64,000 nt of DNA from Centroscyllium fabricii (taxonomy: Eukaryota). Shown here piece after piece: positions 49,747-64,000 of this stretch. Under the pieces are notes generated by a model, which was not told the origin of the DNA, made no database searches, and was given only the letters and a program-made list of their open reading frames with translations. The stretch is taken from NCBI GenBank assembly GCA_051313645.2, contig JBNRSN020000011.1, forward strand, positions 930,001 through 994,000, in the 5' to 3' direction. Numbering within the stretch: position 1 is the stretch's first letter; each line of letters opens with the position of its first letter. The position numbers and the translations under genes were made by a program.

Positions 49747-51496
49747 TATATCTCCTACCCTGTACCTGGGAGTTAATTGGCCTACCCTGGAACTGGGCGA
49801 TCAATCCCCTACCCTGACACTGGGCGATAAATCCCTTACCCTGGCACTGGGAGCTAAATCCCCTACCCTGTCACTGGGAGATAAATCCCCTACCCCGGCA
49901 CTGGGAGATAAATCCCCATCCCTAGCACTGGGGGATAAATTCCCTACCATGGCACTGGGGATATGTCACCTACTCTGGCACTGGGAGATAAATCCCCTGC
50001 CCTGACACTGGGAAATAAATCTCCTACCCTGTACCTGGGAGATAATTGGCCTACCCTGGCACTGGGAGATAAATCCCCAATTTGGCACTGGGATATAATT
50101 CCCCTCGCTTGGCACTGGGAGAGCAACCCCCTACCCTGGCACTGGGCGGTCAACCCCCTACCCTGGCACTGGGCGGTCAACCCCCTACCCTGGCACTGGG
50201 CGATCAATCCCCTACCCTGGCACTGGACGATTAATCCCCTACCCTGGCACTTGCCGATCAATCCCCTACCCTGGCACTGGGAGATCAATCCCCTACCCTG
50301 GCACTGGCAGATAAATTCCCTACCCTGGCACTGGGAGATCAATCCCCTACCATGGCACTGGGAGATCAATCCCCTACCCTGGCACTGGGCGCTAAATTCC
50401 CTACCCTATCACTGGGCGATAAATCCCCTACCCTGGCACTGGGCGATTAATCCCCTACCCTGGCACTGGGAGATAAATCCCCTACCCTGGCACTGGGAGA
50501 TAAATCCCCATCCCTAGCACTGGGAGATCAATCCCCAAACCTGGCACTGGGAGATAAATCCCCATACCTGGCTCTAGGGGATAAATCCTCTCCCCTGACA
50601 CTGGGGGATAAATCCTCTCCCCTGGCACTGGGCGATAAATCTCCTACCCTGGCACTGGGAGATAAATCCCCTACTCTGGCACTGGGGTTAAATCCCCTAC
50701 CCTGGCACTGGGAGACAAATTCCTCACCCTGGCACTGGGTGATCAGTCCCCTACCCTGGCACTGGGCGATCAATCCCCTACCCTGGCACTGGTAGATAAA
50801 TCCCCTACCCTGGCACTGGGCGATCAATCCCCTACCCTGGCACTGGAAGATCAATTCCCCACCCTGGCACTGGGCGATCGATCCCCTACCCTGGCACTGG
50901 CAGATCTATTCCCTACCCTGGCACTGGCAGATCTATCCCCTACCCTGGCACTGGGCGATCAATCCCCTACCCTGGCACTGGGAGATCAATCCCCTACCCT
51001 TGCACTGGTAGATAAATTCCCTACCCTGGCACTGGGCGATCGATACCCTACCCTGGCACTGGGAGATCAATCCCCTACCCTGGCACTGGGTGATCAATCC
51101 CCTACCCTGGCACTGGGAGATCAATCCCCTATCCTGGCATTGAACCATAAATCATCTATCCTGGCACTGCACAATGATTCTGATTCACTCAGTTGGTAAG
51201 ATGTTTACAGATTTCATGAAAAGGTCCATTAAATAGATTCCATTATGAGAGCAGAAAGCTGTAGCACGTTGGACCCTTTAGGGAAGTCACAGTGGGACTG
51301 AGGAATGAGTCCGATAGCTGTTTAATGTTTGCTAATTGGCTTTGTTTGAATTGACTTTTCTTGATTTCCATAGTGACAATTCAAGTATGAAATCAAGATA
51401 TTATAGCTTGCCATTATCACCATTGCGTTCAGGTGGCATCTATATTTGTCAATTGGGTCCCAAACGTACTGTTACTCACTCGCTTCCTTCCTTTCA

Positions 51497-56180: not shown

Positions 56181-57330
56181 GATGCGGGGAAGGGGGTAGG
56201 CGTCGAGCCCGGTGTAGCGGTTAACTGTCTGGCTATAGTCAATGACCATGCGCAGCTTCTCTCCCGTCTTAACCACCACGACCTGGGCCCGCCAGGGGCT
56301 GGTGCTGGCCTCAATGATCCCCTCTTGCAGCATAGGCCCGACTTCCGACCTGATAAACGCCCGGTCCCCTGCACTGTAACGCCGATTCTTAGTAGCAATG
56401 GGTTTGCATTTGGGATCAAGGTTGGCGAACAGCGAGGGGGGGTCGACTTTCAGTGTGGATAGGCCGCAAGTCGAGCTCTGCTTTAAGTGGGGATTGTTCC
56501 GGCTACTGACGGTGAGGGGGGCCAGGGTCCCACCGAAATCCATTGTCACGCTCTTCTGGTGGCACTGGAAATCCAGTCCCAGCAAGACTGGGGCACACAA
56601 CTGCTGGAGGATGTATAGCTTGAAATTGCGGGACACGCAGTCCCTGACCGTGAGCGTGACGGAGCAGTAGCCGGTGACGTCCGCCGTGTGGGACTTTGAG
56701 GCAAGGGAGATTTGGTAGTGCATGGGCTGGGTCTGTAGTGCATAGCGCCGCACTGTATCAGGGTGGATGAAGCTCTCTGTGCTACCGGTGTCAAACAGGA
56801 CGTTAGTGATGTGCCCGTCCACTTTAATCCCCATCATGGAATTTGATAGGGTGTGCGGCCTAGCCTGGTCGACAGTGGCTGAGGCTGAGGTGTGTGTGCG
56901 TAAGTGGGGGGCCTCCGCTAGCTGGGGCCCCAGCCGGGGCAGTTGGCAAGATGGCCGCTCGCAAGATGGCGGCGCTGGCAATGCGTTTGAGTCCGGCTGT
57001 TTTGGACAAGATGGCGGCGACCGTGGTTCGCACGCGGCTGACCGCGGTGGATAAGATGGCGGCGCCGGGGGGTCGCACATGGCCGGCCGCTGAGGACAAG
57101 ATGGCGGCGCCTGTGATTCGCACGCGGCTGACCGCGGTGGACAAGATGGCGGCGGCCGTGATTCGCACGCGGCGGACCGCGGTGGACAAGATGGCGGCGC
57201 CCGTGATTCGCACGCGGCGGACCGCGGTGGATGAGGTGGCGGCGCCCCTGGTTCGCACGCAGCGGACCGTGCTGGGCAAGATGGCGGCGCCGGGGGGTTG
57301 CACATGGCCGGCCGCTGTCGCCTTTGGGGG
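56181..57330 (-). mobile_element. Gypsy internal fragment (gag C-terminal repeats, protease, start of RT), same family as element B
   Basis: Open frame with LFDTGS protease, SPWRAQVVVVK and YTGLDAYPLPRI. Closely similar to 60746-61840 in reverse orientation. Confidence 0.93.
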
Positions 57331-57781: not shown

Positions 57782-58214
57782 TGAGTGGGCTGGCTGCAGG
57801 CCGCTGCTGTGTGGGTTTGGGTGGAGTGGCTGAGGAACCTGTATTCACAGCTGCTGTGCTGAGAGAATCTGTGTTTCAAACGAATCTTTGAACAACATGC
57901 TGTATGGTGGAGCTGGCTCAGAGTGCTGGCCTCAATGAGAGGTAGATTTCCAGACTAGTGTACGACCTAGTACCGAGGACATGCACTGTAGCGAGTACTC
58001 CCAATACGAAAGAGGACCAGTCCTTTGCCAGAATAAGCCTAATCCTACTACATACAGCATGGAGGAGGCAAGTCTCCCGACCTGGAGTCACAGGAACTTC
58101 TGCCCATAATGAGCTTTTACGTAGTAAGGTGCATACTTTTCCTTGGAGAGCCGTATTGCAGCAAAAAGTAGCAGTATTAGGTGAGCCTTGTTTACCAATG
58201 AACAATCTTGTCCA

Positions 58215-58275
58215 TTGTAAGAAGTCACACAACAAACACCAGGTTATAGTCCAACAGTTTTATTTGAAATCACAA
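58215..58275 (-). mobile_element. Penelope-like terminus fragment
   Basis: Near-identical to 541-597 apart from a 4-bp insertion. Confidence 0.85.
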
Positions 58276-59518
58276 CCCCGTCTCCCAACCCCCACTCAGT
58301 CTGGGACCAGTCGACCAGCAGAGGCATGCTCCTGTTCTTTAGCTAATAAAAGCCTATCGTTTATTCACATAACTTCTAGTCTTTTGAGGTTATTGATAGC
58401 GCATCAATTTTATTAGCTAAATTTTTTCACCATGGAGCAAATCTTGAAACCTGCAACGCTAGAGCTGGATCCCCAATCGCCAGATGCTGCTGACACTTTT
58501 GAGCACCGGCTGAACTGCTTCGAAGCGTTCCTTCATGCCTCCAGAGCGACCGTCTGAACCGACGCCGACAAACTGCTGGTCCTCAACTCCCGGGTGGGCC
58601 CTCGAGTGTACTCGCGAATCAGAGATGCTACGTTGCACAACGAAGCGATCAGACTTTTAAAAGGCCAGTATACCAAGAAAGTCAATATGGCTACCCGCAG
58701 GCAACAACCCGGGGAGTTGAGTGACGAATACCTGCAGATGCTGAGAGTCCTCCGTCGGGCCTGTGACTGTAAAGCCGTGACGGCCATAGCGCACAAAGAG
58801 GCCCTGATCAGAGACGCCTATGTCGCCGGCATCAGGTCAGACTATGCCCGACAGAGACTGCTGGAACAGGGTGGGCTCGACCTACAAAAGACAATAGAGC
58901 TCGCTGACTCGTAAGACGTGGCCCTCCGGAACATGGACGCCTACTCCCCTGACCATGCGGCCGCCTCGTGGATGTCGCGGGCGCCGCCATCTTGGGACTC
59001 GGGAAGGCCGCAGGCCTGCGCCACACCGCCACCGTCGCGCCACACCAGCGACCCGACTACAGCTGCGATATCGGGCGGCCCGAAGTGCTACTTCTGCGGC
59101 CAGGCCAAACACCCCAGACAACGCTGTCCAGCAAAGGACGCGATCTGCTCTGGATGCAGTAAGAAGGGGCACTACACCAAGGTGTGCAGAGCCAAACCGG
59201 CCCCCAAATCGAGCAGCGCCGCGTGGGGGCCGCCATCTTGGACGCCGCCAGCCGCGTGTGGGCCGTGCAGGCCGCCATCTTGGGACCGGGCCCCCGACCT
59301 CCCCACCGCCTCAACGGGGTACGACAGCGATTCACCGCACCTAACGCTGGCCTCCATCACCCTGGACCAATCTAGACCTCACCAACTCACCAGGTCAATG
59401 ATGGCCATTAAGGTAAACGGCCGCGCGAAGAACTGCCTATTCGACAGCGGGAGCACGGAGAGCTTCATCCATCCGGACACGGTGCGGCGCTACTCCCTGT
59501 CGGTATCGCCAGCAAGCC
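58276..59518 (+). mobile_element. Gypsy LTR retrotransposon A: partial 5' LTR (58276-58406), defective gag and start of protease; interrupted by element B
   Basis: LTR has AATAAA and ends ...GCATCA. ATG at 58432 (MEQILKP...), in-frame stops at 58555 and 58912. Two CCHC knuckles (CYFCGQAKHPRQRC, CSGCSKKGHYTKVC) and CLFDSGS. Confidence 0.92.
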
Positions 59519-59799
59519 TGTGGTAACCGTATTACCGCTTGTATATAGTTGTTTGTATAGTTGCGGGTGCATGGGCGGGACCTGTACACTGTGGGGTCAC
59601 TCATGTATAGATACTGTATGTAAGGCCAGGTCAGCCACACCTCTAACTCCTCCCCTCAGGTGGGAGCTTATAGGTAAGGTCTGCCCTGCCCCCATTCATT
59701 CTCGCCTTGTGCTCGACTGGAGACTAGCTCCATTATAAAGTTAATAAAAGCCTGTAGTTAAGGTAACTACTCGTCTTTCGTATTATTGACGATACGTCA
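59519..59799 (+). repeat. 5' LTR of Gypsy element B (281 bp, TG...CA)
   Basis: Starts TGTGGT where element A protease homology stops. AATAAA at 59743-59748. Ends ...ACGTCA at the position equivalent to the end of LTR A. Confidence 0.8.
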
Positions 59800-59822
59800 A
59801 TTTTATTAACTTTATTTTTAAA

Positions 59823-62800
59823 ACGGAAAGTAACGCAGTGAAACCGGACAGACTGGATATAAATCCACAAGAACCAGACGCTGCTAACGTTTTCGAACAT
59901 TGGTTCGGTCTAGTCGAGGCCTACATGAAGGCCGCAAAGGCAACGAGCGACGGGGACAAACTGCAGGTCCTCTCGTCCCAAATCAGCAGCCGGGTGTACT
60001 CCTTCATCTGCGGCCGCACGACAGACACGGAGGTGGTGAAAAAGTTGAAGGACTGCTACTTGCGCCCGGTACACTCGGTCTATGCCAGACATGTCCTGGC
60101 GACCAGACAACAGCGACTCGGTGAGTCGAATGAACAATTCCTTTTGGCGCTTCAAGCCCCCGCACGGGCCTGCGACTGCCAGCCACGAACAGCGCAAGAG
60201 GAGACGAATCTCCTCCTACGGGACGCATACGTGGCTGGAATCAGGTCCAACCAGGCCCGCCAGCGGCTGCTGGAAAAGGACACTCTGTCGCTGGAAGAGG
60301 CAATCTCGATTTCGAATGCGGTGGACGGAGCGCGCCACAAGCTAGAGGCGTATGGTGGCCAAGGCCCACATGATACCCTCGATCCCTGGGCGCCACCACG
60401 ACAGGCCGAGAACCTCACGGTGGCAGCGGCAGCTGCGAAGACGCCGGCGGGGCGAAAGTGCTACTTCTGCGGCCAGGGACAGCACCCGCGAGCGCAGTGC
60501 CCCGCGAGGAGCGCGACCTGCGAGCGGTGCACCAAAAAGGGACACTACGCCAGAGCCTGCAAGTCGACCCGAGCGTCCAGCTCCAGACCCAGCAGCGCGG
60601 CCTGCGAGAACTCCAACGCCATCCCATGGCCTAAGGTAACATGTTGCAGCGCGACCCAGCAGCGGTCCGGGGGTAAATTGCGGGCGCTTCAGTCCCCCAT
60701 ATCTGTATGGCGGAGGCCGGCCGCGCGCGCGGCACAGGCGCTGCCACCCCAGAGGCGACAGCGGCCGGCCATGTGCGACCCCCCGGCGCTGCCATCTCGC
60801 CCAGCGCGGTCCGCTGCGTGTGAATCACGGGCGCCGTCATCTTGTCCTCAGCGGCCAGCCATGTGCGACCCCCCGGCGCCGCCATCTTGCCCACCGCGGT
60901 CCGCCGCGTGCGAATCACGCCCGCCGCCATCTTGTCCTCAGCGGCCAGCCATTTACGACCCCCCGGCGCCGCCATCTTGTCCACCGCGGTCAGCCGCGTG
61001 CGAACCACGGGCGCAGCCATCTTGTCCACAACAGCCGGACTCAAACGTGCTGCCGGCACCGCCATCTTGTGAGCGGCCATCCTGTCAACAGCCCAGGCTG
61101 GGGCCCCAGCTACCGGAGGGCCCCCACACACACACACACACACCTCGGCCTCAGCCATTGTCGACCAGGCTAGGCCGCACACCCTATCAAATTCTATGAT
61201 GGGGATTAAAGTGGACGGGCACATTACTAACTGCCTGTTCGACACCGGAAGCACAGAGAGCTTCATCCACCCCGACACAGTGCGGCGCACTGCGGACCCA
61301 GCCGACGCACTACCAAATCTCCCTTGTCTCAAAGGCCCACACGGCGGACGTCACCAGCTACTGCTCCGTCACGCTCACGGTCAGGGACTGCGTGTACCTA
61401 AATTGTATACCTTCCAACAGTTGTGTGCCCCAGCATTACTAGGTCTGGACTTCCAGTGCCACTTCAGGAGTGTGACAATGGAGTTCGGCGGGACTTTACC
61501 CCCCCTCACCCTCAGTAGCCGGGACAATCTCCTCCCAAAGCGGACCCCAGCCTGTGGCCTCTCCACCCTGAGAATCGATCCCCCCTTGCTGTTCGCCAAC
61601 CTCGATCCGAAGTGCTAACCTATCGCCACTAAGAGTCGGCGGTATAGCGAGGGGGACCGCACGTTTATCAGGTCGGAGGTCGGGCGGCTGCTAAAGGAGG
61701 GGATTATTGAGGCCAGCACCAGCCCCTGGCGGGCCCAAGTTGTAGTCGTTAAGACTGGTGAGAAACACCGGATGGTTATCGATTACAGCCAGACCATTAA
61801 CCGCTACACCGGGCTCGACGCCTACCCCCTTCCCCGCATCTCAGAAATGGTCAATCAGATCGCCCAGTACAAGGTGTTCTCCACGATCGACCTTAAATCG
61901 GCGTATCACCAGCTCCCGATCCGGGGAACCGACCGCCCCTACACCGCCTTCGAGGCGAACGGCCGGCTCTACCACTTCCTCCGGGTCCCCTTTGGCGTCA
62001 CCAACGGAGTGTCAGTGTTCTAGCGGGAGATGGACCGTATGGTTGATCACAATGACTTGCAGGCCACCTTCCCTTACCTGGACAACGTGACCATCTGCGG
62101 CCACGGCCAGCAGGACCACGATGCCAACCTGGCCAAATTTCTTGACACGGCGGCTAAGCTGGACCTTACGTATAACAAAGACAAATGTGTCTTTAATACA
62201 ACCCGGCTCGCCATCCTCGGATACGTGGTGGAGAACGGGGTCCTCGGCCCCGACCCACAGCATATGCGACCCCTGCTCGAACTGCCCCTACCTCACAACC
62301 CCAAATCCTTGAGGAGATCTCTAGGATTTTTCTCCTATTATGCACAATGGGTCCCGCAGTTCGCAGATAAGGCTAGACCACTCCTCAAGGCTGCCGTCTT
62401 CCCTCTTTCTATAGAAGCGCAAACAGCATTCGAAAAGATAAAAGGAGATATCATCAAGGCGACGATGGTCGCTATTGATGAATCCATCCCTTTCCAGGTG
62501 GAGAGTGACGCTTCGGACTTTGCCCTTGCTGCCACCCTCAATCAGGCAGGCAGGCCCGTAGCGTTCTTCTCCCGCACCCTACAAGGACCCGAAACCCGCC
62601 ACTCGGCAGTGGAAAAGGAGGCCCAGGCCATTGTGGAGGCCGTGCGCTACTGGCGTCATTACCTGGCCGGTAAGCGTTTTACCCTGCTCACCGACCAACG
62701 GTCGGTGGCGTTTATGTTCAACAATAAACTACGGGGTAAAATCAAGAATGACAAGATCATGCGGTGGCGGATCGAACTCTCCACTTATGAGTATGACATT

Positions 62801-64000
62801 CTTTACCGACCAGGTATACTCAATGAACCCCCGGACGCACTGTCCAGGGGAACGTGCGCCAGTACCCAGCTAGACCGGCTGAAGGACCTCCACGACCGCC
62901 TCTGCCACCCGGGTGTCACCAGACTCGCCCATTTTGTCAAAGCTAATAATCTCCCCTACTCCATCACGGAGATCAAAGCCATGACCCGAGAGTGCGCCGT
63001 CTGCGCCGAGTGCAAACCCCACTTTTTCCGGCCAGACACGGCGCACCTCATTAAGGCCACCCGCCCCTTTGAACGTCTCAGCGTGGACTTCAAAGGCCCC
63101 CTCCCTTCCACCGACCGGAACTCATATTTCCTCACGGTAGTGGATGAGTTCTCCCGCTTCCCCTTCGCCTTCCCCTGCCCAGACATGACGAGCGCAACGG
63201 TGATCAAACACTTCACCACGCTGTTCGCCATCTTCGGTTTCCCCAGCTACATTCATAGCGACCGGGGGTCATCGTTCATGAGCGATGATCTGCGCCAGTT
63301 TCTGCTCCAGAAAGGGGTTGCCACGAGCAGAACGACCAGTTACAACCCCCGGGGGAACGGCCAGGTAGAAAGGGAGAATGGGATTATCTGGAAGGCGGTT
63401 ACTCTAGCCCTCAAGTCCAGAGGCCTTCCAGTGTCCCACTGGCAGGCAGTCCTCCCAGGCGCGCTGCACTCTATTAGGTCGCTATTATGTACAGCTACTA
63501 ATGCCACCCCGCACGACCTTGTCTTCTCTTTCAGCAGGAGATCATCTTCGGGGACGGCGCTCCCACCATGGCTGACGACCCCTGGGCCGGTGTTTCTTAA
63601 AAGGCACGTTCGGGGCCACAAGACGGACCCCCTGGTGGACAAGGTACAACTCCTACACGCCAACCCACAATATGCCTTTGTGCAGTTCCCAGACGGGCGT
63701 GAGGACACCGTGTCCATCAGGGACCTGGCCCCGGCCGGCAACACCACCACAGCTCCTCCTGCTGGCCAGCAGGTCGACCTACCATCGACCACAAGACGGC
63801 CCCCGAGTTCCCCCGCAGATGCACAAGACGAGGTTCCGCAGAGTCACGAAACTACAGCACCGACGGAGACAGACTATTCGGCCATGGGGCAATCACCGCC
63901 AACATCGGAACCCTGGCGGTCAGCAAGACAAACGCGGCCGCCGGAGAGACTCATTGTGAACTGTTCAATTTATCTTCCCCCCCCCCCGGACTCAAAGTTT
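59823..64000 (+). pseudogene. Disabled gag-pol of element B
   Basis: Start appears mutated to ACG (59823). Frameshifts at the (CA)n run near 61125-61143 and in the protease region. Stops at 61616 and 62021. The frame from 62024 appears open to the window end. Confidence 0.85.

Follow-up and report, generated by a model that had tools for sequence, protein, structure and literature searches.

A Probable Self-Made RNA Primer Ending on the Poly(A) Signal in a Non-Chromovirus Gypsy Lineage of Centroscyllium fabricii

Introduction

In this study, we analyzed a stretch of 64,000 nucleotides (nt) of Centroscyllium fabricii DNA (assembly GCA_051313645.2, contig JBNRSN020000011.1, positions 930,001 to 994,000 of the forward strand; the whole stretch is called the window), in which two nested Gypsy elements, A and B, carry an exact complement of their own poly(A)-signal segment directly behind the 5' long terminal repeat (LTR), at the position of the primer-binding site (PBS). 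The pairing is kept with compensated changes in many families, and over-long inverted copies behind the PBS, here called fossils of reverse transcription, stop in a cluster at the predicted transcription start. We concluded that the 13-15 nt after the 5' LTR are probably the PBS for an RNA primer made by the element itself, about 53 nt long and running from the transcript start to an AAUAAAA end, a reading to which we assign a probability of roughly 0.6. Such a primer would likely be the start of the element's own RNA itself, being longer than the Tf1 self-primer and placed differently.

Reverse transcription of LTR elements is thought to start from a transfer RNA (tRNA), and priming of the Tf1 type, by the RNA's first 11 bases, is the one worked-out exception. 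For Tf1, self-priming is an established fact, and for Tf1/sushi, Tcn1 and the TAR Copia lineage it has been predicted (PMC6317226); the GalEa hairpins and the pyrimidine tract of Skipper are tRNA-less designs of a different kind (PMC5445492, PMC6934838, PMC5006619), and in the excerpts of PMC3601003 hairpin priming is noted for chromoviruses only. Self-priming in Gypsy elements is in itself not new; an account of a self-primer placed on the poly(A) signal was not found in our literature search, outside which lay Repbase Reports and most subscription papers. The present arrangement would be a second self-priming geometry, in a broad animal lineage that accounts for much of the LTR-element content of this genome, and would tie priming to the poly(A) signal. 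Self-priming would also free such elements from the tRNA supply and from silencing by tRNA fragments.

Results

The inverted repeats of 14 nt in A (58338-58351 with 58408-58421) and 15 nt in B (59735-59749 with 59801-59815) were recovered exactly as a preliminary description of the window had reported them. From position 50,000 onward, the window holds no other perfect inverted repeat of at least 14 nt whose loop measures 120 nt or less. Both complements begin 1 nt after the CA that ends the LTR, and no TGG-led tRNA PBS, the absence of which had also been noted, occurs at the complement position behind either 5' LTR. The LTRs (with their unique 3', repeated and unique 5' parts, U3, R and U5) and the paired segments are as follows.

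58278..58406, + strand: 5' LTR remnant of A, R-U5 with the CA end; identical at 125/129 nt to the A 3' LTR outside the window, with family copies matching from 58278 on
58298, + strand: site at which transcription of A is predicted to begin, namely the A in the initiator-like motif CTCAGTC; the A-family read-through fossils L309, L319 and L321 end here
58338..58351, + strand: arm of A, the poly(A) hexamer with its flank, predicted 3' end of the self-primer; exact complement of 58408-58421
58408..58421, + strand: putative PBS of A, 1 nt past the LTR, without TGG; exact complement of the arm, missing after the 3' LTR
59519..59799, + strand: full 5' LTR of B, TG...CA, with a TATA-like box at 59669; identical at 275/278 nt to a B-type LTR outside the window, after which the AAGCC duplication follows
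59698, + strand: site at which transcription of B is predicted to begin, namely the A in TCATTC, 29 nt downstream of TATA; fossils of B-type families end at the TCATTC motif
59735..59749, + strand: arm of B with AATAAA, predicted 3' end of the self-primer; exact complement of 59801-59815
59801..59815, + strand: putative PBS of B, 1 nt past the LTR, without TGG; exact complement of the B arm

The 3' LTRs of both elements lie just beyond the window and likewise close with this CA, no complement standing behind it, the B copy being followed by the target duplication AAGCC and the A copy by unrelated DNA. When 40 further elements were fetched at full length, a 3' LTR was present within 6.5 kb in 32 and aligned to the CA in 31, and the complement followed the 3' LTR in one of the 32 (L235, a nested repeat). 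Since the 3' LTRs end at CA without it, the complement lies outside the LTR, at the PBS position, and the concern of the preliminary description that it might fall inside the LTR is settled. The genome pattern TAAAAGCC N45-70 CAATTTTA (arm...CA-A-TTTTA) gave 209,652 matches vs 86 for the reversed control. Loci selected by Gag similarity alone, without use of the repeat, showed an exact match of at least 13 nt in 21/30, in three families. No TGG-led PBS of the kind that matches a tRNA 3' end stood within a few bases of the LTR in the window or in these Gag-anchored loci; there was no Rfam match over 58200-59900, and no tRNA gene in the window. In metagenome contigs, 13 exact nt were found in 8/25 loci, all of one family, with a compensated change in L258, and the remaining 17 loci, without a 13-nt exact match, appear decayed or truncated. 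The self-complement is a real, lineage-wide feature of a non-chromovirus Gypsy lineage.

The covariation was examined in 126 junctions, each with gag behind, in which positions 1-4 are fixed by the search pattern and about half of the copies belong to families A and B. As a comparison of two elements, the covariation between A and B proposed earlier is weak, and the accompanying statement that their LTRs are poorly alignable was not borne out (R-U5 aligns, with 41/51 nt in the best local match); nevertheless, covariation is carried by many families, and the pairing is conserved in them, as the preliminary description had required. All 13 positions paired in 96/126 junctions, these 96 comprising 25 different sequences (haplotypes), and over all 1638 cells 1604 were Watson-Crick, 8 G-U and 26 mismatched. 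Positions 6, 8, 9, 12 and 13 from the arm 3' end exceeded all 500 permutations (paired 91-99% vs 41-66%), and pairing dropped sharply past 13 nt, to 59% at position 14. Among 30 non-redundant junctions, both-side changes were present at 5/12 pairs. The poly(A) hexamer was AATAAA in 99 and ATTAAA in 27 of the 126 junctions, with no other form. The near-absence of G-U suggests that a PBS rewritten by templating fits better than a stem selected for folding alone. Linkage between segments of 47 LTRs was 0.47 for the arm with upstream R and 0.43 for the arm with U5. When the elements are folded singly (A with z -3.2, B with z -1.65), side hairpins appear and the gag start codon takes part in a pairing, but neither feature found support on the junction alignment, where RNAalifold gave the central helix only; in a comparison with the three-duplex 'pretzel' around the PBS of Tf1/sushi elements, two side hairpins placed by hand were paired at 44-47%, probably out of register.

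The start site was predicted from TATA-like and initiator-like motifs together with the fossils themselves. Both motifs were found in 98/126 junctions, spaced 28-32 nt apart in 98/98, and the distance from the initiator A to the arm end was 51-54 nt in 97/98, so that the arm begins about 40 nt inside R, after the predicted start. In family A, fossil stops at 58298, within CTCAGTC, which we take to be an initiator motif, lie 54 nt from the arm end, and the stop of L315 is one base further. Patterns for poly(A)-tailed retrocopies that would mark the cleavage site gave 1 match each for two patterns, and both these and the strong-stop-end tests yielded too few events. Separately, in L325 and L326 the LTR is preceded exactly at the predicted start by the apparent 3' end of another element, both of them ending CCTTACA.

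Among the first 30 pattern matches, one (L115) had a PBS continued by a 242-nt perfect inverted LTR copy, and three patterns for such over-long copies gave 1,663 matches (578 + 1,070 + 15) and 0 in controls. From the three sets, 90, 30 and 15 fossils (135) were examined, and merging of copies of the same junction left 115 distinct events, with stops at 24-49 nt from the arm end in 30, at 50-56 nt in 31, at 57-185 nt, inside U3, in 10, and beyond 185 nt in 44. After L147, a deletion, was dropped, 30 events remained at the predicted start site, drawn from all three sets (11, 15 and 4); in these the inverted copy breaks off at the initiator A or a few bases from it, and gag, pol or unrelated DNA follows. 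Compared with uniform stops, this clustering has P ~1e-22 for the interval 24-185 nt and P ~8e-7 for 24-56 nt, the de-duplicated events being taken as independent. On the minus strand, a start-site fossil would join the first ~53 bases of the RNA to the U5 complement, like a retained primer; DNA snapping back would have no reason to stop at the start site, whereas an RNA template beginning there would. Fossils of this kind offer a way of reading primer ends and start sites from genome sequence alone.

Of the 45 long copies (unmerged), 18 were hairpin LTRs that have a 5-bp duplication (17 recognized by script, and L148 by eye), 6 run through the polypurine tract (PPT), 15 extend as far as the LTR start, their left LTR being broken, and 6 are unresolved or without duplication. 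The hairpin LTRs, in which LTR and PBS are followed by inverted U3 back to TG (L115/L122, L123, L133, L139, L140, L171, L173, L282, L323 and others), form a class of insertions with proper target duplications, so that a product bearing U3 at both ends is apparently an acceptable substrate for integrase. In two amplified derivative families, a 53-nt R complement is joined to the same gag region, with 5 copies in one (L136, L158, L167, L187, L206) and 6 in the other (L128, L150, L159, L170, L200, L210). Both lack the gag start and look non-autonomous. Since these derivatives of start-site fossils have multiplied into families, replication seems to tolerate a PBS match of 53 nt. Finally, 12 candidate LTR mosaics represented 7 distinct parent pairs, and 4/7 switch upstream of the arm.

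The lineage has the Ty3/Gypsy domain order gag-protease-reverse transcriptase (RT)-RNase H-integrase with no env (Pfam, five long open reading frames and the window), TG...CA LTRs and a PPT, and in about 28 of 32 two-LTR elements a duplication of 5 bp was read by eye (4 or 5 of 5 letters). No chromodomain was detected after integrase in the five long open reading frames (E up to 0.1), the window, 6 relatives or the 120 homologues listed. The RT-RNase H region gave 1,083 protein matches at E up to 1e-60, with a sea anemone relative 63% identical, and the closest named protein relatives among the matches listed came from sharks and rays, then sea anemone, crinoid, prawn, damselfly and nematodes. 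In an RT-RNase H comparison with one chromovirus family and no outgroup, 18 lineage rows stood apart from 6 chromovirus rows (100/100), at 30-35% identity. The RT catalytic motif (window 62065-62090, and relatives) takes the form YLDN in the families of this genome and YLDD in some of the relatives from invertebrates. Chromodomain elements of the same genome, taken as a control, carried an 11-nt complement in 6/8 loci, matching a segment ~29 nt after TATAAA in the four loci with that box and roughly 340-390 nt upstream of AATAAA. In young chromovirus-type elements (L359-L363, L365; LTRs 99.6-99.8% identical), the 11-nt Tf1-style self-complement varies in step between families.

Discussion

In the model that we propose, the arm would pair with the PBS, and the RNA would be cut or trimmed directly after A(A/U)UAAAA, by RNase H on the analogy of Tf1. 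The freed 3' end would prime minus-strand synthesis through U5; the arm 3' end does face U5, in agreement with this primer direction. Plus-strand strong-stop DNA would later copy the primer and rewrite the PBS, which would keep the match perfect, and usually 13-15 nt of the primer copy would persist. Fossils would arise either from RT reading the whole primer or from the free PBS end folding back onto its own LTR. The primer might come from the same RNA, the partner RNA or a short R-only transcript. The proposal of the preliminary description that an AAUAAA-containing segment of the element primes without tRNA is well supported; of the two sources it had named, folding back from the RNA 5' end or supply from the 3' end, the fossils favor the former (30 start-site stops against 6 through PPT), with the correction that the arm is not the very first bases of the RNA and lies about 40 nt past the start. 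A bolder version is offered tentatively, as doubtful in its entirety: the lineage would make a tRNA substitute, a capped R-only RNA of ~53 nt ending at the poly(A) hexamer and provided in trans, either from the partner genome or as a short transcript of any of the numerous LTRs; one 13-bp duplex would be both primer site and 5' poly(A) switch; and the system would have originated independently of Tf1/sushi and spread through animals.

Several points weigh against the self-primer that runs from the transcript start. Its start site, the primer itself and the RNA cut are predictions from sequence rather than observed RNA ends, and stops at the start site could also be produced by a short PBS copy switching to another RNA's 5' end. 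Beyond this genome, exact pairing was found in one family only. The fossil patterns require an LTR complement and so cover no other kinds of extension, and the independence of de-duplicated events is assumed in the P values. Six fossils (L145, L154, L163, L185, L199, L284) run through U3 and PPT into internal sequence, as a 3'-end primer predicts. The 4/7 mosaics argue against a strict cut in cis, although uniform recombination gives about the same.

Unlikely, though the most probable of the alternatives, is a short self-primer of 13-15 nt, with the arm cut on both sides, after which the PBS end of plus-strand DNA would anneal to the arm of another RNA and be extended to its 5' end. The sharp end of the normal PBS match at 13 nt would be explained without a stop signal, and the snap-back products (18 hairpin LTRs by eye, 17 by script) show PBS ends re-annealing to arms. 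However, an extra step is needed for the commonest internal stop, and in intact RNA the PBS should hide the 5' arm and leave the 3' arm accessible, but 30 stops at the start site stand against 6 run-throughs of the PPT. Rather improbable is a primer formed by the 3' end of the genomic RNA, whose 3' R copy would be cut after AAUAAAA and act in cis or from the partner RNA. The six fossils through U3 and PPT and the switch upstream of the arm in 4/7 mosaics are on its side, but it expects read-through of U3 without a stop at the start site, and 30 stops were seen within 7 nt vs 10 over the next 129 nt.

In HIV-1, the AAUAAA of the 5' poly(A) hairpin is hidden by pairing near the RNA 5' end, within R-U5, and a tRNA primes. 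Here, in contrast, the pairing partner lies beyond the LTR, at the position of the PBS, and we regard it as quite improbable that the hairpin hides the 5' poly(A) signal as in HIV-1 and does nothing else, another RNA or site being the primer. The hexamer kept in all junctions (AATAAA 99 and ATTAAA 27 of 126) and a duplex that can form at the 5' LTR alone agree with such hiding; against this, a structural RNA stem should allow G-U, which was seen in 8/1638 cells, the complement stands exactly at the PBS position with no TGG site there, and the fossils record DNA synthesis from the PBS into the R complement. Occlusion of the poly(A) signal may be a second role beside priming, and the self-priming duplex could plausibly hide the signal at the 5' LTR only.

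A host small RNA as primer, be it a tRNA, half a tRNA or another kind, with the LTR match incidental, is very improbable even though half-tRNA priming is known in Copia lineages (PMC6317226), given 25 different PBS 13-mers in one genome that each match their own LTR, the lack of TGG after the LTR in Gag-anchored loci and the lack of an Rfam match over 58200-59900; the earlier concern about a tRNA matching the post-LTR sequence is answered, as far as the analysis reaches, by these 25 sequences, the tRNA set itself having not been searched directly. Equally remote is a perfect match kept by DNA-level correction of near-palindromes after insertion, with no replication role, for which L230 speaks (a private compensated change is common to its 5' arm and PBS but absent from its 3' LTR), but this is a single case among 32 elements, the mismatches (30/126 copies) fit ordinary decay at the LTR divergence (mostly 94-99% identity), and the missing tRNA site and the start-site stops would be left unexplained.

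The self-priming proposed here would work like that of Tf1, yet its primer differs, being probably longer and ending on the poly(A) signal. In Tf1/Tf2, Tj1, Tosmo and the Tf1/sushi group there is likewise no tRNA site, and the bases right behind the 5' LTR complement the element's own R (PMC7175516, PMC10085805, PMC6317226); the Tf1 layout is that of our chromovirus control (PMC7175516, PMC10085805). That the element's own RNA primes once it is cut where the duplex ends, as has been shown for Tf1, would be a further likeness, and Tf1 cDNA keeps a DNA copy of the primer at its 3' end (PMC11042837). The difference lies in the primer, which in Tf1/sushi is the first ~11 nt of the RNA, whereas here the match is 13-15 nt long, begins ~40 nt past the predicted start and ends on the poly(A) hexamer. 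The absence of a chromodomain, an RT apart from the one chromovirus family compared and an arm that, judged by the predicted start site, is not the first ~11 nt speak against membership in Tf1/sushi.

Outside Tf1/sushi, self-priming from an LTR complement at the PBS position is also predicted for TAR, Houba and Osr-1 (PMC6317226); these are plant elements of the Copia superfamily, whereas the domain order here is protease-RT-RNase H-integrase. By its described features, the Cigr-1 clade resembles the present lineage as compact, single-ORF (open reading frame), non-chromovirus animal Gypsy elements, and the PBS goes unmentioned in the excerpts of the Cigr-1 papers (PMC6238403, PMC8556966). Troyka, likewise an animal LTR lineage formerly placed in Gypsy, has 3-bp duplications and CG...CG ends (PMC12440569) and was rejected in view of the 5 bp and TG...CA found here. 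A literature motif search for a clade name gave no paper, and the readable supplements of the mollusc paper gave nothing. Kapitonov and Jurka reportedly described 'self-primed Gypsy' families from sea anemone and amphioxus in Repbase Reports, about 2007-2008, with a 12-13 bp palindrome between the LTR and the beginning of the internal part as the proposed self-primer. Those families may cover this lineage.

Other Features of the Window

The genome comprises 7.2 Gb, and a 27-bp satellite fills most of the window, as an array of ~48 kb (2570-51000) with strong GC skew and longer internal duplications. The 5' LTR of A is shortened in this copy, beginning near 58278 without U3 and TATA, and B was inserted into the protease region of A with a 5-bp target duplication, AAGCC. 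The coding regions are as follows.

58432..59518, + strand: gag and protease start of A, broken by stops and cut by B; the final 5 nt are the target duplication
59823..63990, + strand: gag-pol after the B LTR, with zinc knuckle, protease, RT, RNase H and integrase and no chromodomain; broken copy

The gag-pol at 59823..63990 is possibly a mosaic with a third family. Just outside the window, the pol behind the B 5' LTR ends in a third LTR type (L031:1066-1743), beyond which lie a protease fragment and then a 5'-shortened B LTR, so that B is either mosaic or nested. Between zinc knuckle and protease, a GC-rich tandem repeat occupies window 60700-61100 and the gag-protease spacers of relatives, and units similar to it, GCCGCCATCTT, occur reversed at window 56900-57310.
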